From NCBI GenBank assembly GCA_963794945.1, contig CAWCFT010000019.1, positions 2,052-66,051 of the forward strand: DNA of 64,000 nt. The letters run 5' to 3'. Positions 1 to 27,476 of this stretch are shown here, piece by piece. Numbering within the stretch: position 1 is the stretch's first letter; the number at the start of each line of letters is the position of its first letter. The position numbers were made by a program, and so were the translations under genes. This stretch comes from Endomicrobiales bacterium. GTDB taxonomy: Bacteria; Elusimicrobiota; Endomicrobiia; Endomicrobiales; CAWCFT01. The notes beneath the pieces were generated by a model, which saw nothing but the letters and a program-made list of their open reading frames with translations, was not told the origin of the DNA and made no database searches.

Positions 1-863
1 CCACTGTTTTTCCTTCATGTACGCCCGGATGCCGAAATCCAGGTCTTCAGTCAGGGACTTAAGGTTGAAGCCTTCCAGTTTGTACAGAAGTTGTTTGTCC
101 ACAAAAAAATTTGTTCCGCCTATGAACGGCAGATGCTTGAGAAGTATTGGCAGGAACCATTCGTGCGTTATGCCCTGAAATATAGCATAAATCTTATTTA
201 TAGCGCTTATACGGAAGTAATTGCGCACCTGGATCACAGATCCCTGCAGCAGTATGCACTTATCCGGCTCAGTTATATACTTGTTCGCCACGTAAAGCAG
301 TGTACCTTTCTCGGGATGGCTGTCCGCATCATAAAAGCCGACAATATCCGTATCGGGCTCAATGGAGCGCATGGCCCAGTTAAGCGCGCGCGGCTTCGTG
401 GATGGAACGCTATGATCGGTCAAAGAACCCGGATAGCACCCGTCAAAATTCGGTGGCACGCTGACGTAATCTACCAGTTCGGTGTTGTGTAGCTTGTTGA
501 GGAAACTCTTCCGCTCTTCCACGCGATGATGGGTAATATCTCCGGGTTCATTCTCTTCAAGTTCCTTGCCGTCAAGTGCAAAGAGTATTTTTATCCTGTC
601 TTTCGGATAATCAAAGGTGATCATCTTATTGATAGTAGCGGCGATTATGCTCGATTCGTTCTTCGCAGCAATAACTATGGTAAATTTCGGAAGTTCCTTA
701 CCGCGCGCTTTCGCGTTAGCTTCAACGTCGCCGACCCTCAAGGCGGTGTTCCTCTTTTTTCTCCAGTGAAACACGTATGAAAGAATGGCGTACGTTAGCG
801 TTTGGAAAAAAACGCCGCGACAATAACGTTCATCGCAACTATTGAAAAAATGAAATACTTCAT
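1..863 (-). CDS. Membrane-anchored GT2 glycosyltransferase (cellulose-synthase-like), truncated by window edge, frameshift in A7 run at 806-812
   Basis: Manual translation (absent from ORF track): MKYFIFSIVAMNVIVAAF, then after one extra T ...LPKFTIVIAAKNES...FDYPKDRI...KPRALNWA...GFYDADSHP...GGTNFF...LTEDLDFGIR. These are the GT2 D, DxD and TED motifs. Confidence 0.8.
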
Positions 864-1139
864 AAGATCGTGTTACCTCGCGTATCCGGATCCAGATATG
901 TCTAGCGGCTAGTGCTTACAAACACTGTATCGAATTACATTGAAACTGCCTAGTGAACTTTTGAGAATGAATGGATTCATCGTAAAAGGAGAGTTAGTTG
1001 TCCTGTCCGACTCACATAGCCATTTCAGAAAGAATATAGTTATTTGCTCTGGTTATTATAGCAATTTATGCGCTTGTAAACAAATCAAATACTGGCAAAT
1101 CTTATGTTTAACATCGCAAACCAGAAAATTTTTGTCTGG

Positions 1140-2387
1140 TCATGGTTCACAATGGTCGTGTTCGTGGTCATGTTCGTGCTCGTAATCCGTGCCGGGCCCG
1201 GCCGGCTTTCTTTGGCCTGTTTTCTCAAAGTAAGCGTAAAGCGGCGACATTCCGCGAAGCCTGTCAACTACCTGCGGGAAATTATCAAGCAGGTAGTCCA
1301 CTTCTTCATCCGTACTGTATTTTGACAACGACATCAGGATAGACCCCTGCCCGACAGCCGCGTCCACTCCTATGGCTGTAAGCACGTGGGACATTTTCAG
1401 CGCCTTGGAAGCGCAGGCAGAACCACTGGACACGTATATGCCTTTGGCGTCGAGAAGCATGAACATGCCCTCGCCTTCCACAAACTCTATTGAATAATTC
1501 ACATTTCCCGGAAGACGGTTTGCCGGATGGCCGTTGAGGTAAATATATTTTATCTTGCCGGGAAGCTCGTTTATTATCCTGTCCCTCAGCCTTGCCATCT
1601 TATTAGCGTTATCCGCCATCTCGCTTAACGCTATCTCGCTGGCTCTGCCAAGCCCTACTATAGCCGGTACGTTCTCAGTGCCAGCCCGCCTTCCATTTTC
1701 CTGTATGCCGCCGTCTATCTGAGGCGTTATCCTGGTACCTTTTTTTATTACCAGCGCCGCCGAACCTTTAGGGCCGTAAAACTGCGAGCCCGACAGCGTC
1801 AAAAGGTCGGCGCCTATCTTCTTCATGTCAACGGGTATCGTTCCGGCCGTCGTCACCGCGTCCATGTGGTACAGCGAACCTTTTTCGTGTACTATAGCGC
1901 CTATCTGTTCAACCGGCTCTATTGTACCGATCTCTGTGTTCGCGTGCTGTATTGAAACCAGAACCGTATCAGGCCTTATCGACTTTTTAAGCTCGTCAAG
2001 CATCACCGTCCCGTTCTTGTCAACCGGAACCTGCGTAACTTCAAAACCTTCCTGGGTGAGGCGCTTAGCGGCGTTGATCACGCTAAAATGCTCTATCGCG
2101 GAAACTACTATATGTTTTCCCTTCTGCCTGTATGCCGAAGCCGCGCCTTTTATCGCAAGATTATTAGACTCGGAACCGCAAGAAGTGAAATACACCTCTT
2201 CATCCAGCGACCCGGCCAGCTTCGCAACTGACGACCTGGCCGCATCTATCGCGTCTTTGGACTTTGCTCCCAGCTGGTACATGCTCTGGGGATTGCCGTA
2301 GTTCTCTTTAAAGAATGGCATCATAGCTTCAAGCACCCGCTCATCGAGCTTCGTATTAGACTGGTTATCCAGATAGACTTCTTTCAT
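1140..2387 (-). CDS. IscS/NifS-family cysteine desulfurase-like protein (PLP Lys replaced by Gln; His-rich C-tail)
   Basis: YLDN, FTSCGSESNN, IEH, RAGTENV and catalytic SSGSAC are present. SGSQFYGPKG replaces SGHKxYGPKG. Tail EHEHDHEHDHCEP. Confidence 0.9.
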   Translation of the reverse strand: MKEVYLDNQSNTKLDERVLEAMMPFFKENYGNPQSMYQLGAKSKDAIDAARSSVAKLAGSLDEEVYFTSCGSESNNLAIKGAASAYRQKGKHIVVSAIEHFSVINAAKRLTQEGFEVTQVPVDKNGTVMLDELKKSIRPDTVLVSIQHANTEIGTIEPVEQIGAIVHEKGSLYHMDAVTTAGTIPVDMKKIGADLLTLSGSQFYGPKGSAALVIKKGTRITPQIDGGIQENGRRAGTENVPAIVGLGRASEIALSEMADNANKMARLRDRIINELPGKIKYIYLNGHPANRLPGNVNYSIEFVEGEGMFMLLDAKGIYVSSGSACASKALKMSHVLTAIGVDAAVGQGSILMSLSKYSTDEEVDYLLDNFPQVVDRLRGMSPLYAYFEKTGQRKPAGPGTDYEHEHDHEHDHCEP

Positions 2388-2388
2388 T

Positions 2389-2814
2389 TTAATCTCTTAT
2401 TTTTTTAAGTATATGCGACACTTTCTCAAGATGTTCTTTTTCATCTTCTCTTATGCCTTTTATTGTAATGATGAAATCCTTGTCTTCACACACTTTCAGC
2501 ATTTCATCATAATACTTCACAGAATTCGCTTCTATCTTCACGTGGTTTTCAAGCACTTCTCTTATAGAATTAGAAGGTTCCAGCGGCTTAAAAACCCATT
2601 CAGCTTTGACGCCAAGCTCGATCATTTTCATTGCTAGTCGGTCGGCATGGCGGAGTTCCATAACGCTAAAATCATTGAATATTCCGCCTATTTTATCACC
2701 TGAAACCATTTTCTTTCTGAAAAGATCGGCCTCTTTAAGATAAAGAAAAACGTCGTTGTACTCATTTTCAAAAGCAATGTTAAGCAGTTTAATAAACTTT
2801 TCTTTGTTACCCAT
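2389..2814 (-). CDS. Ferritin-like di-iron four-helix-bundle protein (bacterioferritin/erythrin-like)
   Basis: E..ExxH..E..ExxH pattern (ENEY, ELRH, IEAN, EKEH); 141 aa. Confidence 0.8.
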   Translation of the reverse strand: MGNKEKFIKLLNIAFENEYNDVFLYLKEADLFRKKMVSGDKIGGIFNDFSVMELRHADRLAMKMIELGVKAEWVFKPLEPSNSIREVLENHVKIEANSVKYYDEMLKVCEDKDFIITIKGIREDEKEHLEKVSHILKKIRD

Positions 2815-2823
2815 TTCGTCCTT

Positions 2824-2985
2824 TTATATTACCTTTTCAAAAACATCTTTACCAGCTCCGCATACCGGACAGACCCAGCCTTCAGGCAGCTGCTCAAAAG
2901 GCGTGCCGGGCTTAACACCTGAATCCTGATCTCCCAGCTTTGGATCATAAACGTATCCGCAAACCGTGCACTTATAATTGTCCAT
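2824..2985 (-). CDS. Rubredoxin (53 aa)
   Basis: Manual translation [53 protein letters not shown]; AGGAGG RBS upstream. Confidence 0.95.
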
Positions 2986-3037: not shown

Positions 3038-3066
3038 ATGATATACATTTGTCCTGTTCTTGTCAA
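3038..3066 (-). promoter_or_regulatory. sigma70-type promoter for rubredoxin/ferritin-like/IscS-like unit
   Basis: TTGACA (3066-3061), 17-bp spacer, TATCAT (3043-3038). Confidence 0.7.
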
Positions 3067-3100: not shown

Positions 3101-5440
3101 TTATCCTTCATGGCCAAAGCGTCTAATTGAAATTGAGTTCATCACTACCGACACTGAGCTCAGAGCCATAGCAAGCCCGGCAATCATCGGGTTGAGCATA
3201 AAACCGGTTATATTATAAAGCGCTCCGGCAGCTATCGGGATACCTAGAACGTTGTAAGCGAACGCCCAGAAAAGGTTCTGTCTTATTTTGCCCATTGTGA
3301 GGCGGCTTAGTTCTACGGCCTTTTTAACATCGTTCAGGTTGTTCCTTATAAGAAGTATGCCTGAAGATTCTTGGGCAACGTCTATACCCGATCCGAGGGC
3401 TATCCCAAGGTCAGCGCTCGCCAGGGCGGGAGCGTCATTTATTCCGTCACCTATCATCGCCACCTTAAAACCTTTTATTTTTAGCTCTTTAATAAACGCG
3501 GCCTTACCCGCCGGAAGGACACCGGCAGCGACGTAATCTATACCAGCTTCACGAGCAACCTGTTTAGCCACAGCCTCTTCATCCCCAGTTACCATATAAA
3601 CCTTTATGCCGGCCCCCTCGAGGTATTCTACAACCTCTCGGGCATTGTCTCTAATTGTATCCGATAGGCCAAACAGGCCCACCGCACTGCCGTTCTCGGC
3701 AAGCCAGATCATAGTTCTTGTTCGTTGGCTCAAGCTGTCAGCAAACTTCTCCAGGTCGTTCGGTATTACTACACCATTTTCTACCAGAAGCTTTTTCCTG
3801 CCCGCAATAATATCAGAATTTCCTATATTCGCTTTGAGCCCAGCCCCTTCAAGATAAATAAAATCCGTTATTTCTTGAGCGATCATCCCCTTTGCGGACG
3901 CATACCTGACCAGGGCTTCTGCTAGCGGATGTTTCGAATGGCTCTCAATTGAAATAGCCAGAGTTAGCACCCGCGCCTCGTCCTGCCCTTGGGCAACTGC
4001 AAAATCCGACAGTTCCGGCACGCCCCTGGTTATCGTTCCCGTCTTGTCAAAAACCACGGCATCTATATTTTCGGCGATCTGTATGGCTTCGGCGTTCTTT
4101 ATAAGTATACCGTTGTCTGCGGCAACACCCGTAGCGACCATGACAGCCGTGGGTGTCGCAAGGCCCAGCGCACACGGGCACGCAATTATCAGTACCGATA
4201 TCATAACGGTTAGCGCGAAACCGAACTCGGCCCCGGATAAAAGCCAAACAGCAAAAGCTGTGAGCGCGATGCCGAAGACCGCAGGCACAAAATATGCCGA
4301 TATCTTGTCGGCAAGCTCCTGCACCGGCGACTTTGACCCCTGTGCTTCTTCTACCAGCTTTATTATTTGGGCAAGCACAGTTACGCCGCCGGTCTTTGTG
4401 GTTATGAATTTAAAGCTGCCGCTGGTATTTATAGTTGCCCCAATTACCATCGAACCCTTTTTCTTGTCAACCGGGACGCTCTCCCCGGTTATCATCGATT
4501 CATCTACGCTCGAAAAACCTTCCACTACCTCGCCATCGACCGGGATCTTCTGCCCGGGCCGGACGAACACTGTATCGCCTATAACTACATCTCCGGCCGG
4601 GATCTCTTTTTCTATCCCGTCTCTTATAACAAACGCGGTTTTGGGTTTGAGGTTTGCAAGCCTCCGGATCGCGGCGGAAGTTTTGCCCCTGGCAAGGGCG
4701 TTGAGCCAGTTGCCCAGCAGTATAAAAACTATCAAAACAGCAGCTGTTTCGAAATACAGGTTATCGGGCCCGTAGCCCGGCCTTTTCAAAACAATTGCTG
4801 TAGTTACAATAAGGCTATATAAGTATGCCGACCCGGTCCCGACCAAAACAAGAGTATCCATATTGGCCGATCGAGTCTTGATCAGAGCGAGTATTCCTCT
4901 TTTAAAGAACATCCTGCCCGATACCATCACTGGAGTAACAAGCGTCAATTGCAACACCGCTGAGGCCCAACCGCTAAGCATCGTAAACGGCAGTCCTAGA
5001 TGCGAGCCCATCGAAAAATATACAAGAGGAACCGCAAAGCCAGCAGCAGCGTAAAAGCTTTTTTTTACTGAATCAGTTTCTTTTACCCTGGCTTCCTGTT
5101 CCGCTGACCTCTCACCGTTCTCTTCGACTGGCGCGTAACCTGAGCTTAGTATCTTGTCCTTTATCTGTGCCGCAGGATTCTCCGCATGTTTAACTACCTC
5201 ATAACCGGTTAGCATTATTATGTTCTCAAGGTCGCTGACAGAAGTCCTTGAAGGGTCATATTCGACGAATGCCTTTCCTATCGGGTAGTTTACGCTGGCA
5301 TTAACCACCCCGTTAACGCGTCCGAGGCTCTTTTCTACTGTCAATCCGCAGGAAACGCAGTGCATACCTGAAATGCCGATCACGGCTTTTTTTATCAGTG
5401 TGCTATTACCGTTTACTTCGGTTGTATTTTCGCTATTCAT
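3101..5440 (-). CDS. copA: Cu(I)-translocating P1B-type ATPase
   Basis: HMA GMHCVSC, TGES, CPC, DKTGT, HP, GDGIND, YN and MxxSS motifs. Confidence 0.93.
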
Positions 5441-5480: not shown

Positions 5481-7011
5481 TTACAGCGGCTCTACTCTTA
5501 TCGCTTTTGTCGGGCTTACCGGGCACTTGAACTCGCATATGGCGCAGCCAACGCAAAGGTAAGGGTCAACACTGGGGAGTTTGATGACTTTTCCATTTTT
5601 GCCCTTTGTTTCAATCACTTTTATGGCTTTATCTGACACCGGGCAGTGTTCTTCGCAGACAATACACTCTGTACCTTTGGCCCATGGAAGGCACAGGCGT
5701 TGGGTCAATCCCGGCCAGACCCATTTTTGTTCCCATCTTCTGCTCTTGTGTAAGGGATTCTATGGCTCCTGTCGGGCAAACACTGCCGCAGAGGTTGCAC
5801 TTGTACTCGCAGTAGCCGATGCTCGTGTCGAACCTCGGCGTCCAGATACCCGACACGCCCGATTCAAATATGGCCGGCTGAAGCACGTTGGTGGGACACA
5901 CTTTCATGCAGTTGCCGCACCTTACGCACCTCTTAACGAATTCTTCTTCCGGGGAGCGCCGCCGTGGCCTGATAACTCTTGTTTTTGACGTACCCGCCCC
6001 CGCCGAACCAGCCGAACCAAAAAGCCGCGAGCCAAAAATGAATGCCATGATACCGGAAACATAAACAAGGAACTGCGCTCTTGTAATGCCCTTTTCATCC
6101 GAATGCTCATACTTGAATCGTCTTTTCCCGCCGAACATGAATTTTGAATAACCGCCTGGGCATATATGCGTGCAGTCCATGCAAAGCACGCATTCTTCTT
6201 TTAAGTAGCTGTTGTCGCTGTTTATAGCGTTCATCCTGCACCGGGACATGCATAACGAACACTGGCCTTTACAGGTTCCGGAAGACCTTTCTAGGAGCGA
6301 GAACCTTGACACCACGGCAAGCAGAGCGCCCAATGGGCAGAGGAACCTGCACCAGAACCTTCTTTTCCAGGCAACTGCCGCCAAAATCAGAATAATAACC
6401 ACAAAAACGGCCGCTGTATGCGGGAACACCGTATTGTTCAAAGGTATGAGGTTATCTTTAAAGAAATAGTAAGCCTTTTCTATAACACCGTGGTTTTCCA
6501 TCCTTTGCAGGACAAAAATGAACGCGTTGTCTATTGCCTTATTCAGAAGCGGAAATATGTTAAACGAGAAGGCGCGGAAGAAGATGGTTATAGGGTCTAA
6601 GGCCCATGCCGCCTGTACACCAAAAATCGCAAGCAGGAAAACAGCGGCGAGCAGGATATATTTAACTACCCTGCTTTTTGACGGCTGGCCTTCTTTGTAT
6701 TTCTTGATTATTATGTTCAGAACAAAGGCCCAAAAGTCCTGCAGGGCCCCCAGCGGGCAGAACCAGCCGCAGAAGGCGCGCCCAAAGACAACAGTCATGA
6801 CAAGCACGAGCAGAGCGTAAAAAAGGCCCGCGAGAAATACCCTCTCGGCGAGCGCGGTCGCGAACATTATGAATGGGTCAAGCTTGAAGTACAGCGAAGG
6901 GTTAAGTGTGTTATTAAGCGGGTATTTCGTGGCCCATATTATAAAAACGAGCCAGGAGAAAAATGCTATTTGGGAAAGTCTTCGTATTAAAATGAATCCA
7001 CGCTGTTTCAT
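5481..7011 (-). CDS. Polytopic membrane polyferredoxin (NapH/MauN-like TM region + NapG/MauM-like 4Fe-4S domain); frameshift near 5705
   Basis: FCGWFCPLG and WCRFLCPLG motifs plus several CxxCxxCxxxCP. ORFs 5629-7011 and 5481-5708 join as ...GLAGID/QRLCLPW if one C is removed. Confidence 0.85.
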
Positions 7012-7016
7012 GGTAG

Positions 7017-7999
7017 TTACGCATTTATGTGTTTTATCTTCGCCTTGGCGATGTTCAACGAACCAACGCCCACTTCCGCGGCTTTCGCTATATGCGAGAT
7101 GTTTGCCGGCTTAATTCCGAATAACGTCGCAGCATAAGCATCGCAAAGGACCGGGTCCACACCGGCTATAACCGTGTTCTTTTCCGCGACATCCTCAAGG
7201 TTGCCGCCGCTGGGACCATGGCGGAGAAGTATCCGGTTGGCGTCTATAACTGTCAGGTCGGGATTAATGAAAAGAGTTAATTCCGGAAGCTTCTTTTCTA
7301 TTCCCCAGTGTATCTGGCCCCTTGACCCGCCGCATATACCCATGAGGTTTTTCATCGAAAGTGTCAGCCTTGCGAGGCTATGGTGCTTCGCAATAGGAAC
7401 ATTGATAAAGCAGTTGCACTTTACCGCGTCTTCAAATATGGGCCAGTCCGCCATATCACTCCCCGCGGTCATTACGGCCGGATAGTATTTCCAATCGGGA
7501 ATGAATATCACCGTCGCACCCGCTTTCTTTGCGGCAGCCTGAATTCCGCTGTTGTCGTAGCATCGTTTGGCGTCGTTGCAAGTGTTGTCAAAGACTTTGA
7601 CCGTTTTGGCGCCGCTTTCAAAACACATCTTTACAAGCTCAGCTACGACTTCCGGATTGGTAGTAGCCGCCTGCTCGGGCGACCTGTCCCACCCGATGTT
7701 GGGTTTGACAACTACGGTGTCGCCGGATTTAACGAATTTTTTCATGCCGCCCAGCGCATCCACCGCTTTCCGGGTTGAGGCTGCCGGGGCTTTGCCTGTT
7801 GAAACGGCAAGGTCAAAATCTGTTTTAATGTTTTTCTTCTTGCGCGGGTCGAGCTTTTTGTCGGCCGCAAGAAGAGCCTTTTTACCGAACTTTCCCGAAG
7901 ACACGAGAAATATCAGCCCTAGCCCGAGGACTTTAAGGAAGGACTTCCTCGAAAAAGAGCCGTAAACAGGTTCTTAAGATAATCTTTTTCAATTTTCAT
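7017..7999 (-). CDS. DUF362-domain Fe-S protein with Tat-like signal peptide; frameshift near 7975
   Basis: VVVKPNIGWDR, TTNPEVV, NVPIAKHH, TLSMKNLMG, DPVLCD motifs. In-frame upstream sequence reads EPVYGSFSRKSFLKVLGLGLIFLVSS. ATG at 7999 with AGGAG RBS. Confidence 0.85.
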
Positions 8000-14220: not shown

Positions 14221-16230
14221 CTATAAAAGGCTTTGCGGGTCAATATCTATTGACAATATTACACCAGCGGGAAGGCCCGCGTCCTTAAGCATCCTAGCGG
14301 CCGCAGAAATGTCACCAGCGGGTCCTTTTAATATTATCTGCCACCTGAAATAACCGTGCAGCTTGTTCCGAGACGCCGGGCTTGGACCCAGCATTTCAAA
14401 GGCGGCTTCGCCGCTTTCTTTGTAAGCATGAATAAGCGCTCCGGCTGTTTCCGCGGCCTCTTTTGCTTTTTCCTCTTTTTTCGCGCGCACCATTATGTTG
14501 ACTATTTCCGAGAACGGCGGATAGTGCAGCTCTTTGCGGAACTCTATCTCTTGCTTATAGAACGTTCTAAAATCATGCAGTTCGCTGGCCTTTAGCACGT
14601 AATGCTCCTGGTGCTGTGTTTGTATCACTACCTCGCCGCCCAGGCTGCTGCGACCCGACCGGCCCGCCACCTGCGCGAGTATCTGGAAAGTCCTCTCCGA
14701 TGCGCGGAAATCCGGCAAGTAAAGTGCAGTATCAGCGTCAACGACAACGACTAACGTTACCCTCGGGAAATCAAAACCTTTCGCCACCATCTGCGTGCCG
14801 AGCAGTATATCGAAATTCTCATCTTTGAAATCCCTATACGCGGTTTCATAAACACCCGCTTTTCTTGTTGTGTCCTTATCAAGCCGAAGTATCTTTCCCT
14901 GCGGAAATATTTTTTTAAGTTCTTCCTCGACTTTCTGCGTGCCGATGCCGAAGGCCGATACTTCCCTCGACTTGCAGCTCGGGCACACGCCAGGCCATGC
15001 CTGATGATAATCGCAGTAGTGACACCTTAAACCTTCGGGCAACCTGTGGTAAACCAGCGAGACCGAGCAGTGCGGGCATTGGAATACTTTCCCGCAGTGC
15101 CTGCACATAACACCCGGCGAAAATCCTCGCCTGTTAAGGAACACTATGGCCTGCTCGCGCCGAGCCAGCACCTTGCGCAGGGCTTCAACGGCCGGCTCGG
15201 AAAGTATATTTGACCTTCTGTGAAGCTTCGTTGAGTCCACTAGCCTTACTTTAGGAAGCGGCCTGTCGGCTATCCTGCGCGGCAACTCCAAAAGTTTTAT
15301 AACGCCGTTCTGGGCTTTGTGGAACATCTCCAAGGACGGGGTCGCAGACCCGAATATCGTTATGGCACTATTGAGCCTCGCGCGTTCAATGGCTACTTCC
15401 CTTGTATGGTATGCGGGTTTTTGTTCTTGTTTGTAGCTTGGCTCATGCTCTTCATCTATGATTATAAGGCCCAGGTTCTTAAAAGGGGCGAACACCGCAG
15501 AGCGTGCCCCAAGGATTATCTTAATTTCTCCTTTTCTCGCCTTATCCCAGATAGAGAATTTCTCGCTTGTTGTCACTTTAGAATGCCACAAGCCTACCAC
15601 GCCAGGAAAACGGTTTTTTACGATGGATATGAACTGCGGGGTAAGCGATATTTCCGGCAGAAGGAATACAGCTGTTCGGCCGGCACTCAGCGTTTCTTCA
15701 ATAGCCGAAAGATAAACCTCGGTTTTGCCCGAACCGGTTATACCATAGAGCAGGAATGTGTCGTTCTTTATTGATGTTATGCTTTCTTTGATGTTCGATA
15801 TAGCTTCTTTTTGCGCGTCCGTGTGTTCGAATACTGGTCGCCCCGCTAGACGCACCGGGCTTGGTATAGGTTTGGGAACTGACGGATTTAAAAATCTTTT
15901 TGGCGCTTTTATCGCTGCGGGAACGGCCGAACCAAGCGCCTCACCGAACGAACACATGTATTTCGCGCTTATCCACCTGGCAAGCGTCATTAGTTCTTCG
16001 GTTACAGAAGGCTCTTCATCGAGCAGAGCTATTATGTCCCTGGTTTTCTCGATTGCGCATTCGGGCATAAGGCTTAATATGTAGCCGGTGAGCCGTTTCG
16101 GTCCGAACGGGACTTCTACTCTCATGCCGACTTTGGCTTTGGCCAGAAGGCTTGGCGGTATCCTGTAATGAAATGTTTTTTCAATAGGCAGGCTCAGAAC
16201 GATTTCCGCGAAGAGGTTTTGGGATGTCAT
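14221..16230 (-). CDS. priA: Primosomal protein N' (PriA)
   Basis: Starts MTSQNLFAEIVL; GITGSGKT, DEEH, Cys-rich CxxC pairs, QVAGRSGR. Confidence 0.93.
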   Translation of the reverse strand: MTSQNLFAEIVLSLPIEKTFHYRIPPSLLAKAKVGMRVEVPFGPKRLTGYILSLMPECAIEKTRDIIALLDEEPSVTEELMTLARWISAKYMCSFGEALGSAVPAAIKAPKRFLNPSVPKPIPSPVRLAGRPVFEHTDAQKEAISNIKESITSIKNDTFLLYGITGSGKTEVYLSAIEETLSAGRTAVFLLPEISLTPQFISIVKNRFPGVVGLWHSKVTTSEKFSIWDKARKGEIKIILGARSAVFAPFKNLGLIIIDEEHEPSYKQEQKPAYHTREVAIERARLNSAITIFGSATPSLEMFHKAQNGVIKLLELPRRIADRPLPKVRLVDSTKLHRRSNILSEPAVEALRKVLARREQAIVFLNRRGFSPGVMCRHCGKVFQCPHCSVSLVYHRLPEGLRCHYCDYHQAWPGVCPSCKSREVSAFGIGTQKVEEELKKIFPQGKILRLDKDTTRKAGVYETAYRDFKDENFDILLGTQMVAKGFDFPRVTLVVVVDADTALYLPDFRASERTFQILAQVAGRSGRSSLGGEVVIQTQHQEHYVLKASELHDFRTFYKQEIEFRKELHYPPFSEIVNIMVRAKKEEKAKEAAETAGALIHAYKESGEAAFEMLGPSPASRNKLHGYFRWQIILKGPAGDISAAARMLKDAGLPAGVILSIDIDPQSLL

Positions 16231-16244
16231 AGTAACACTATATT

Positions 16245-16980
16245 TTAATTCGAGTGGTTTAATTTCAGGGCGTCTCTTATCAGCTTCATGTCTTCCCAGA
16301 ACATCTTTTTTCAGGTTAGGGTTACGCAGGAGGGCTGCCGGGTGATAAGTGGGCATAAGTTTTATGCCTTTATATTCAACAAAAACTCCTCTGAGCTTGC
16401 TGATCCCTATTTCAGTCTCGAGCATTCTCTGAGCACTTGAATTTCCCAGTGTGCAGATAACTTTTGGTTTTATCAACTCAATTTGTTTTTTAAGGTACGG
16501 CAGGCAGCAGTTGGATTCTTCTGGCGTCGGCGGCCTGTCATTTCCGCGTTTTTCCGGATCGGAAGGATCTATCATGGGATGGCATTTGACTATATTTGCG
16601 ATGTAAACTTGTTCTCTGCTAAGTCCTATCGATTCGATAATCTTTGTCAGCAACTGGCCGGCCCTGCCTATGAAAGGCTCACCCTTGTGGTCTTCATCAA
16701 AACCCGGCCCTTCACCAACGAACATGAGCCCTGCCTTAGGGTCACCCGTACCGAATACCGCATTGAGCCTGCTTTTGCCCAGCCCGCATTTCCTGCATTT
16801 ATCCACTATGCCTTTCAAGCTTTCAAGCGTGACGTTATCTTTTATCTCAGTGTGCAGAGTTGGTGCTTTTACTATGTTTGCTTTTTTCACAGGCACCGTC
16901 TCCGTTTCGCCCCACAAAAACTCTTCAGCGATGCAGTTTTTTGCGAGGGTTATTGTTTTCCCAAGTGTCGAGCGCTTCAT
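16245..16980 (-). CDS. Family 4 uracil-DNA glycosylase (4Fe-4S); frameshift near 16300 creates an apparent fusion to PriA
   Basis: CRKC, GEGPG, NIVKC, TYHPAALL. Removing one T gives the C-terminus KKDVWEDMKLIRDALKLNHSN*. Confidence 0.88.
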
Positions 16981-25692: not shown

Positions 25693-27476
25693 TCAATCGC
25701 CTATCTTAAGCACGGCAACAAATGCCTCTGGTGGGATCTCAACCCTGCCAAACTGCCTCATGCGTTTTTTGCCTTCCTTTTGTTTTTCAAGGAGCTTTCT
25801 CTTACGCGAAATATCGCCGCCGTAGCATTTAGCAAGCACATCTTTTCTGACGGCAGATATATTTTCGCGCGCGATTATCTTGTTGTTTATCCTTGCCTGT
25901 ATGGGTATCTCGAACATCTGCCTCGGGATCAGGGTCCTCAGTTTTTCCGCCAGGAAATGCGCCACCGTCTGGGCTTTCTCCTTGTGCACTATAACTGAGA
26001 AAGCGTCTATGACATCCTGGTTGATCATTATCTCTAGCTTCACCAGGTCTCCTACCTTAAAACCAATGTGGTCATAATCAAAGGATGCGTAACCCTTTGA
26101 AACTGATTTTAGCGTATCATAGAAAGAGATGATAACCTCCGCCAGAGGCATCTCGTATTTCACTATTATAGTCTTTGTGTCAAGAAAACGAAGAACGGTC
26201 TGTTTGCCACGCTTCTTTTGGCAGAGGTCCAGCACCGGCCCCATGAATTCCGAAGGACATATTATAGTCGCAAGCACGTAGGGCTCCTGTATCTCGATTA
26301 TATCACCGTAAACAGGGAATTTTGCAGGGTTATCTATGTCAGTCGTACCCTTCTGCGTCGTGACTTTGTAAATGACGTTAGGCGCGGTTATAAGCAAGTT
26401 CAACCCAAATTCCCTCTCAGCCGCTCCTTGACTATTTCAAGGTGGAGCGAGCCTAGGAAACCGCACCTGAAACCGAAACCCAGCGCCACCGAAGTCTCCG
26501 GCCAATGGAAAAGTGACGAGTCTGAGAGCCTTAATTTCTCCAGCGCTTTCTTAAGGTTATCGTAATCCGATGTGCTGACAGGATAGAGCCCGGCAAAAAC
26601 AAAGGGTTTTATCTCGCGGTAACCGGGGTGAGGTTTCGTGGTCGGCCTGCTGACCTCTGTTATAGTGTCTCCAATCTTGATATCGTGGATATCTTTGATG
26701 CCGGCAACAATGTAACCCACTTCACCGGCTGATACTCTGTCGCTTGGTATCATTTTTATCCTCATAAAACCCGTTTCCAGTATTTCATGTTCTGCGCCCG
26801 AAGAAAGCATCGTTACTTTCATGCCAGGTTTAAGGACGCCATCCAGTAAACGCACGATTATAATAGCTCCTCTGTAAGGATCGTAAAAAGAATCGAATAT
26901 GAGAGCGGACAGTGGGTCCGCGGCGTTGCCCACCGGAGCTGGAATATTTTTTATGACAGCATCAATTATTTCTTTGATGCCTATGCCTTCTTTGGCGCTG
27001 GCAAGTATAGGTTCATCCGGCACCTCTAACCCCTCTCTGAGCTGAAGGTAAGCGTTGTCTATATCCGCTGTCGGAAGATCTATCTTGTTTATGACCGGTA
27101 TGATCTTCAAATTGCCCTGACGGGCGAGATAGGTATTAGCAAGCGTCTGTGCCTGCACGCCCTGTGACGCGTCGACGACAAGTATGGCCCCTTCGCACGC
27201 AGCAAGCGCGCGGGAGACCTCGTAGGTAAAATCCACGTGACCCGGCGTGTCTATGAGGTTAAGGATATACTCCTTGCCGTTCTCGTCTTTATACTCCATC
27301 CTTATGGCTTTAGCTTTTATGGTAATGCCGCGCTCGCGCTCGAGGTCCATGCCGTCAAGTACCTGCGCGCGCATCTCCCTTAGCGAGATGGTGCCCGTAA
27401 ACTCCAATAGCCTGTCAGCAAGCGTGCTTTTACCGTGATCAATATGGGCAATGATACAAAAATTTCTTATTTCCAT
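25693..27476 (-). CDS. lepA: Elongation factor 4; frameshift near 26415
   Basis: [35 protein letters not shown] split over two ORFs. Confidence 0.95.

Follow-up and report, generated by a model that had tools for sequence, protein, structure and literature searches.

A 64,000-nucleotide stretch of contig CAWCFT010000019.1 from an Endomicrobiales bacterium (assembly GCA_963794945.1; the whole stretch is referred to below as the window) carries near its beginning a gene for an IscS/NifS-like protein in which the Schiff-base lysine of cysteine desulfurases is missing. The gene, its altered active site and its loop cysteine lie as follows in window coordinates.

1140 to 2387, minus strand: Lys-less IscS/NifS-like gene, 415 amino acids, an intact open reading frame (ORF) with ATG start and TGA stop.
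1782 to 1787, minus strand: Ser201-Gln202 where SxHK has His-Lys, encoded by TCG (1787-1785) and CAG (1784-1782) within LSGSQFYGPKG.
1413 to 1415, minus strand: Cys325 of the mobile SSGSAC loop, encoded by TGC (1415-1413).

The product of this gene has the class-V aminotransferase fold (PF00266, E 6.7e-75 across residues 4-366). Its AlphaFold 2 (AF2) model has a mean predicted local distance difference test score (pLDDT) of 91.6, with residues 324-328 of the Cys loop at low confidence, and Foldseek aligns the model to NFS1, E. coli IscS, NifS and Archaeoglobus fulgidus IscS with template modelling (TM) scores of 0.86-0.97. None of the desulfurase equivalog models TIGR03402, NF010611 and TIGR02006 is passed by the protein: it scores 488.6 bits against TIGR03402 NifS, its top NCBIfam match, where the curated cut-off is 530.75, and reaches 398.8 of 548 bits with NF010611 and 381.5 of 643.2 bits with TIGR02006.

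Compared with the canonical NifS-like paralogue of the same genome (contig 6, locus L001 in our numbering, 1417-2670, minus strand), the protein has YLDNQSNT, HANTEIGT and MDAVTT where the paralogue has HNATT, HANNEVGT and DAVQ, and SGSQ and ILMSL where the paralogue has SAHK and VRFSF. In addition to the lysine, four further positions that serve binding of pyridoxal 5'-phosphate (PLP) or of the substrate are replaced, namely by Ser201, Thr179, Thr151 and Leu351 where canonical enzymes have His, Gln, Asn and Arg. A first-pass annotation made from the letters of the DNA had read TCG CAG at 1787-1782 as part of LSGSQFYGPKG, had pointed to DAVT, NQSNT and NTE as deviant and had seen the SSGSAC cysteine and the IEH histidine kept in an intact frame; the sequence and the comparison with the paralogue bear out all of this, and the replacement of the Arg of VRFSF by Leu351 is a further loss to be added to that list. 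Retained are SSGSAC (Cys325) and IEH (His100) as well as the residues for the pyridoxal ring and phosphate, His100, Asp176, Ser72 and Thr237. The functions named here (Schiff base, ring stacking, substrate carboxylate) follow E. coli IscS, where the Arg of xRFS binds the substrate carboxylate; what was computed is the conservation of the positions. Could another lysine take over? In the sequence alignments the sole conserved lysine near the site is that of FYGPKG, which canonical enzymes share, and Lys328 and Lys331, which are specific to the family, lie beside the Cys loop and not the pocket.

The same losses recur in the relatives of the protein, which were collected in two sets: the best 120 matches of a word-indexed search (64-100% identity), and 112 related loci, of which 29 come from same-order genomes, 80 from metagenomes and three from genome contigs, the last from a search with a single protein that gave eight loci, three of them family members. 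Lysine occurs at its column in 0/120 of the best homologues (Q 100, E 8, S 5, A 4, P 2, T 1) and in 0/112 of the loci (Q 53, V 44, P 4, T 3, A 2, M 2, L 2, R 1, E 1). None of the best 120 homologues has H at the former His column, and at the former Arg column they have L (106), V (7), T (6) or M (1). Cys325, the stacking His100 and the ring Asp176 are invariant in both sets (120/120 and 112/112). As a comparison set we used 118 Lys-bearing relatives (representatives with lysine in 118/118 by selection), in which the Thr of NATT is conserved to 94%, the Asn of NNE to 97%, the Gln of DAxQ to 97%, the His before the Lys to 89%, the Gly after PKG to 97% and the Arg to 99%. The canonical His, Gln, Asn and Arg residues are thus found in 89-99% of the Lys-bearing relatives as opposed to 0-5% of the Lys-less family. 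With residues as diverse as Q, V, E, S, A, P and T in the Lys column, none stands out there as a functional replacement.

Across 51 family members the mean column identity is 75%, and Q34, F101, R109, D225, F302, K331 and Q347 are invariant specifically in the Lys-less family. Against its 82%-identical counterpart in locus L048 the gene shows 0.099 nonsynonymous differences per nonsynonymous site (pN) and 0.722 synonymous differences per synonymous site (pS). Judged by these alignments, the family is under strong purifying selection though the old active-site columns have become variable. A sequencing error, which the first-pass annotation had already thought unlikely, or a decaying pseudogene can for practical purposes be discounted: nothing beyond the missing lysine speaks for either, and against them stand the intact frame, the recurrence of the same losses in all of the best 120 homologues and all 112 loci, a pN far below pS and a conserved family-specific C-terminal tail (see below). 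In small shares of three public soil-metagenome runs, matching contigs span 1233-1721 and 2305-2337, the codons at 1782-1787 being outside these intervals.

The family is common in the order and class to which the window belongs. At E 1e-100, 56/60 same-order genomes hold a family-level match (54-72% identity); the exceptions are genomes G007, G010 and G016, which have matches of at most 46% identity, and G008, which has none at this threshold. A survey of the phylum at E 1e-120 found a match in 101/301 genomes, concentrated in the window's order and class (68/70 genomes of our group f10 and 9/9 of f11); at the same threshold there was none in groups f20 (0/92), f24 (0/30) and f29 (0/32). Close homologues come from sources named Elusimicrobia/Endomicrobiales, Planctomycetota, WOR-3, Desantisbacteria and Thermodesulfobacteriota, and across all these sources they are annotated as cysteine desulfurase.

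The genomic neighbourhood of the family links it to the scaffold protein IscU. In 26/26 same-order loci with at least 700 bp of downstream sequence, tblastn places IscU directly downstream on the same strand, and the Pfam domain NifU_N was confirmed in 20 same-order loci and in L010-L012. The 80 metagenome loci gave the following counts, in which each denominator is the number of loci with enough flanking sequence.

IscU directly downstream of the Lys-less gene: 50/68 loci.
DsrE2-like gene directly downstream, without IscU: 8/68 loci.
Neither IscU nor DsrE2-like gene downstream: 10/68 loci.
DsrE2-like gene within 1500 bp downstream: 20/60 loci.
Rubredoxin gene within 700 bp upstream: 18/63 loci.
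Ferritin-like protein gene upstream: 4/57 loci.
Fur-family gene upstream: 7/46 loci, probably an undercount as three query proteins were used.
Canonical NifS gene directly upstream: 4/46 loci.

Most loci of the same-order relatives have a gene for a Fur-family or Rrf2 regulator upstream, many have one for rubredoxin immediately ahead of the Lys-less gene, and 4/29 have a ferritin-like protein in the position that it occupies in the window. The DsrE2-like protein of L022 matches PF13686 (E 4.5e-45), and Cys117 of this protein is shared by at least 90% of 19 DsrE2-like sequences. The window's own genome contains a single IscU gene, on contig 13, whose product passes TIGR03419 (NifU_clost; 208.8 bits) and is 88.5% identical to the IscU adjoining the Lys-less gene in L022; the one DsrE2-like gene of the genome lies about 8 kb from it on the same contig. 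Complex prediction for the Lys-less protein with IscU and the DsrE2-like protein, the latter as scored partner, returned 0.00 in two runs without controls and gives no answer either way.

The best solved match of the Lys-less protein is A. fulgidus IscS (4r5f/4eb5; E ~1e-118, 48-50% identity, TM 0.86-0.97). This protein (IscS2; 4eb5/4eb7/4hvk, D199K variant 4r5f) has the type I desulfurase fold and has kept the loop Cys, as in the Lys-less family; the equivalent of the canonical Arg is Leu in both it and the window protein, and it too belongs to a gene family paired with IscU. In the passages of PMC7585200 and PMC8918507 that deal with it, A. fulgidus IscS is described as having Asp for the Lys and no desulfurase activity, as holding pyridoxamine 5'-phosphate (PMP), and as contributing a cysteine that ligates the [2Fe-2S] cluster on IscU, the proposed origin of the sulfur being sulfide; the PMP is kept non-covalently. 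Different from the window protein, which has Ser-Gln at the His-Lys positions, A. fulgidus IscS has Asn-Asp there. It is moreover an archaeal protein of 382 amino acids that ends at an SPLY motif and lacks the tail of the Lys-less family, and it keeps the Asn of ANNE where the family has Pro or Thr. The organisms of the Lys-less family, unlike A. fulgidus in this respect, also carry a canonical Lys-bearing paralogue. Closer in the latter point is Methanosarcina acetivorans IscS1, which as far as PMC7585200 describes it lacks the catalytic Lys, is encoded together with an IscU, an active IscS being present in the same organism, and has been suggested to act like A. fulgidus IscS; it is archaeal, uncharacterised and reportedly insoluble, and its likeness to the Lys-less family is drawn from this description.

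The similarities in fold and active site to A. fulgidus IscS, together with the IscU linkage, lead us to favour, as the probable though by no means certain role of the Lys-less protein, that of a non-catalytic partner of IscU of the A. fulgidus IscS kind in iron-sulfur (Fe-S) assembly. At the level of the alignments, a non-catalytic role is supported by the retention of the fold and of Cys325 and by the family-wide loss of the Schiff-base Lys and of four other positions. A dimer of the Lys-less protein would dock IscU, and Cys325 would serve as a ligand of the nascent [2Fe-2S] cluster or as the point at which sulfur is handed over. The sulfur itself would come from elsewhere: it might be supplied as free sulfide, by the canonical Lys-bearing paralogue or by a DsrE2-like carrier.

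Might the protein still be an enzyme that uses non-covalent PLP or PMP, or another base, for desulfuration or for a different reaction or substrate? His100, Asp176, Ser72 and Thr237 are conserved and A. fulgidus IscS holds PMP (PMC8918507, in its account of the bound cofactor). Nevertheless we regard this as very improbable. The Lys column (Q, V, E, S, A, P, T, M, L, R) and the former His, Gln, Asn and Arg columns are variable and thus speak of relaxed constraint rather than of a new catalytic residue, and the Arg that 99% of the Lys-bearing relatives have is Leu or Val in the Lys-less family. In addition, the part of PMC8918507 that covers A. fulgidus IscS and the D199K variant reports them as inactive or PMP-bound.

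With respect to active systems, the Lys-less protein has the same fold as E. coli IscS and human NFS1 (TM 0.88-0.95, ~40% identity) and shares with them a C-terminal segment that extends past the last core helix. The latter two are however active PLP enzymes, and the tail of the Lys-less family, AGPGTDY followed by a Glu/His repeat, is missing from the 118 Lys-bearing relatives. In gene content the family resembles the clostridial-type NifS-NifU pair or minimal ISC system (MIS; MisS-MisU), a two-gene unit of a NifS-like and an IscU-like protein without chaperones or carriers: the IscU of the window's own genome passes TIGR03419, the best NCBIfam match of the Lys-less protein is TIGR03402, and SufBD was not found in the 86%-complete genome, in which chaperones and carriers were not searched for. 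MIS is described with an active cysteine desulfurase in the relevant passages of PMC12192291 and PMC13066941. By contrast, the IscU-linked partner considered here lacks the catalytic residues and falls below the TIGR03402 cut-off, and the active paralogue is encoded elsewhere.

That the genomes do contain such a paralogue is evident from the counts. The window's own genome has two NifS-like genes and one IscU, and no SufBD (PF01458) was found in it; as this genome is 86% complete, the absence of SufBD is not established. For five relatives that seemed to have the Lys-less gene only, a search with PF00266 gave a second, better-scoring gene in 5/5 cases, and all of these second genes carry the His-Lys, DAVQ and the Cys. 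Canonical and Lys-less paralogues hence co-occur in 6/6 genomes examined. In 2/5 of the relatives (L130 2670-3683 in G039 and L133 2673-3782 in G005) the canonical desulfurase gene directly precedes that of MnmA, the tRNA 2-thiouridylase, an arrangement that may point to tRNA thiolation as the dedicated task of the active paralogue. Within one genus (L027, L029, L030, L031 and L034, from G018, G019, G021, G033 and G055) the canonical NifS gene is directly upstream of the Lys-less gene, and the cluster also contains IscU and an Rrf2 regulator. On contig 6 of the window's own genome, the canonical NifS-like gene is followed by a gene whose product is a permease of the ArsP type containing Cys-rich motifs (PF03773, E 7.5e-49; L001 148-1233).

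These arrangements bear on the possibility of a persulfide relay, in which Cys325 would take sulfane sulfur from canonical NifS/IscS or from a DsrE2-like carrier and pass it on to IscU. Such a relay overlaps with the role as a non-catalytic IscU partner and differs from it in what Cys325 does. It would agree with the invariance of Cys325 and its flanks, with the canonical NifS directly upstream in the five loci of the one genus and in 4/46 metagenome loci, and with the nearby DsrE2-like gene in 20/60 metagenome loci, given the conserved Cys117 of its product and the presence of one copy in the window's own genome. However, it is a minority of the loci that have canonical NifS or a DsrE2-like gene as a neighbour, and neither is adjacent in the window; moreover, IscU normally takes its sulfur straight from an active desulfurase, so that an extra relay answers no demonstrated need. 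We therefore consider the relay possible but unlikely.

Around the Lys-less gene the window contains further genes and sites, most of which would make up a transcription unit with it.

2824 to 2985, minus strand: rubredoxin gene, 53 amino acids, first gene of the predicted operon (NF045768, 93.5 bits; cut-off 90).
2389 to 2814, minus strand: gene for a ferritin-like di-iron protein, 141 amino acids (PF00210, E 5.4e-10; PF02915, E 7e-5).
3038 to 3066, minus strand: promoter-like site TTGACA-17-TATCAT, matching 11/12 positions, the best in a consensus scan and a consensus match only.
814 to 839, minus strand: terminator-like hairpin of 10 pairs plus T run, ~300 nt past the stop codon of the Lys-less gene, likewise a consensus match only.
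3101 to 5440, minus strand: gene for a heavy-metal (copper-type) P1B ATPase, upstream (TIGR01525, 621 bits; TIGR01511, 596 bits).

From the gene order and the promoter-like and terminator-like sites we predict an operon of rubredoxin, ferritin-like protein and Lys-less IscS. The promoter-like site sits between the stop codon of the ATPase gene and the start of the rubredoxin gene, the stop codon of the ferritin-like gene is 1 nt ahead of the ATG of the Lys-less gene, and on the minus strand there is no ORF of at least 60 amino acids in 863-1085. The ferritin-like protein has weak matches in the Protein Data Bank to bacterioferritins (E 4.5e-5). In L048 (82% identity) the order is Fur, rubredoxin, ferritin-like protein, Lys-less gene and IscU. 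The context of rubredoxin, ferritin-like protein and Fur suggests that the gene is connected with iron supply or oxidative stress. As for the P1B ATPase, it is likely a neighbour with a promoter separate from that of the Lys-less operon; a similar ATPase is encoded upstream in L021, L024, L025 and L074. Neither of the two upstream genes of the operon had been noticed in the first-pass annotation, nor had the conserved C-terminal tail and the non-adjacent position of IscU in this genome.

A regulatory role would suit this context in some respects: the protein, as an inactive paralogue, could compete for IscU or form heterodimers with the active desulfurase and so tune assembly according to iron or oxidative status. 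The canonical paralogue co-exists in 6/6 genomes examined, Fur-family or Rrf2 regulators adjoin many of the loci, and in the window the gene shares its operon with rubredoxin and a ferritin-like protein. Yet the near-universal order of Lys-less gene and then IscU (26/26 and 50/68) fits a main partner of the scaffold and not an occasional inhibitor, and the active paralogue is linked to MnmA, not to IscU, in 2/5 relatives, all of which makes a brake of this kind improbable. Because of the IscU adjacency, the Cys ligand and the persulfide carrier are favoured among the three functions (Cys ligand, persulfide carrier, regulator) that had been put forward for the protein in the first place.

Beyond the ATPase gene, the region 5629-7904 (minus strand) encodes a DUF362 protein (7017-7904) and a membrane polyferredoxin of 460 amino acids with Fer4_5 and 4Fe-4S dicluster domains (5629-7011), a pair that may be a redox module. 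Two genes farther away in the window are of unusual structure. LepA (EF4) is encoded at 25693-27476 (minus strand) by two ORFs overlapping by 4 nt, one with the GTP_EFTU and D2 domains (26400-27476) and the other with EFG_C and LepA_C (25693-26403), which reflects either a frameshift or assembly error or a gene that is truly split. An ORF of 919 amino acids at 14221-16980 (minus strand) fuses an N-terminal domain of the uracil-DNA-glycosylase superfamily (PF03167, residues 76-225) to a complete PriA helicase.

Family members share a C-terminal tail past the last core helix.

1143 to 1238, minus strand: C-terminal extension, residues 384-415, YAYFEKTGQRKPAGPGTDY then EHEHDHEHDHCEP; the corresponding columns are gaps in the 118 Lys-bearing relatives.

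The consensus of the tail is Y-x-x-F-x-K-T-G-x-R-x-x-A-G-P-G-T-D-Y, followed by Glu/His (Asp) repeats for which the window protein has EHEHDHEHDHCEP. Among 51 family members F387, K389, G391, R393, P398 and G399 are invariant and A396, G397, T400, D401, Y402, H404 and H406 are conserved to at least 90%, and the motif pattern is matched in 104 of the 112 related loci. The tail is absent from the other Lys-less bacterial relatives P0122, P0127, P0137, P0139 and P0181. Residues 398-415 have a pLDDT below 50 in the AF2 monomer model. Its acidic, His-rich composition suggests metal binding, and as a more speculative element of the mechanism the tail might, close to the IscU site, bind Fe(II) or some other metal, or else a partner. 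The tail of the window protein ends in His-Cys-Glu-Pro (1143-1154, minus strand); a cysteine near the C-terminus is also present in several of the closest homologues (P0002-P0004, P0006, P0008, P0009 and P0011), and most family members are without it.

How does the role as a non-catalytic IscU partner stand up to the observations that do not fit it readily? First, IscU is not adjacent in the window's own genome: the stretch homologous to L048 ends shortly after the stop codon of the Lys-less gene, no remnant of IscU was found in the window, and window positions 700-1300 have no DNA in common with the IscU locus. The partnership is therefore inferred from the relatives. Second, every genome checked holds a canonical desulfurase, so dependence on sulfide is not required. 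Third, the ring and phosphate residues are retained, and non-covalent binding of PLP or PMP with residual or different chemistry is therefore conceivable. Fourth, the role of the tail is read from its composition and conservation, and the tail is disordered in the monomer model. Finally, the phylogeny does not bring the family together with its archaeal counterpart. Lys is absent in 21 of the best 150 representatives at 50% identity, and trees were calculated with FastTree (149 rows) and with IQ-TREE in quick mode (63 rows, including 38/118 of the Lys-bearing relatives), rows outside 370-440 amino acids having been dropped. In both, the tail family is a clade with a support of 100 within a mostly Lys-less bacterial group, and the A. 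fulgidus-type group, which includes P0154 (431 bits to 4eb5) and P0148 (whose cluster holds an Odinarchaeum protein), is found elsewhere. An approximately unbiased (AU) test did not reject a single clade of the tail family and the A. fulgidus type (p 0.463). We therefore make no claim of independent losses of the Lys in bacteria and archaea, though the trees suggest them.

Taken together, the proposal of the first-pass annotation that the gene encodes a repurposed, non-catalytic IscS-like protein is supported, as the protein belongs to a large Lys-less clade under purifying selection in a conserved IscU neighbourhood. That annotation had also suggested looking for such a clade and neighbourhood among homologues and for a canonical IscS or SufS elsewhere in the genome: the clade exists, with IscU downstream in 26/26 and 50/68 loci, and a Lys-bearing paralogue is encoded on contig 6. 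The precedent it had invoked, A. fulgidus IscS, is the best solved match and is described much as stated in the pertinent parts of PMC7585200 and PMC8918507, with the nuance of the non-covalently held PMP.

A bolder version of the non-catalytic partner role is distinctly unlikely as a whole, and we offer it tentatively. The family could form the core of a desulfurase-independent bacterial Fe-S module, in which the Lys-less protein would dock IscU, ligate the cluster through Cys325 and deliver Fe(II) through its tail as a built-in iron chaperone; rubredoxin would act as reductant in releasing iron from the ferritin-like protein, and the sulfur would be provided by free sulfide or a DsrE2-like carrier.

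A search of the open-access literature found no title or abstract describing a bacterial Lys-less IscS family or its tail. Inactive, Lys-less IscS has so far been discussed as an archaeal curiosity of A. fulgidus and M. acetivorans; the present data add a large bacterial family that lacks the lysine as well. Its members occur in nearly all genomes of the window's order and class and, by source names, in several other phyla, and it is they that are linked to IscU, with the active paralogue encoded elsewhere. If the Lys-less protein is indeed a non-catalytic partner of the scaffold, the annotation as cysteine desulfurase NifS would be wrong in hundreds of genomes, and models of minimal ISC and MIS systems that assume an active desulfurase beside the scaffold would need revision for these anaerobes. 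Testable handles on the source of iron and on the route by which sulfur reaches IscU in sulfide-rich, anoxic habitats are offered by the conserved Glu/His tail and by the neighbouring genes for rubredoxin, ferritin-like protein, Fur and DsrE2-like protein.

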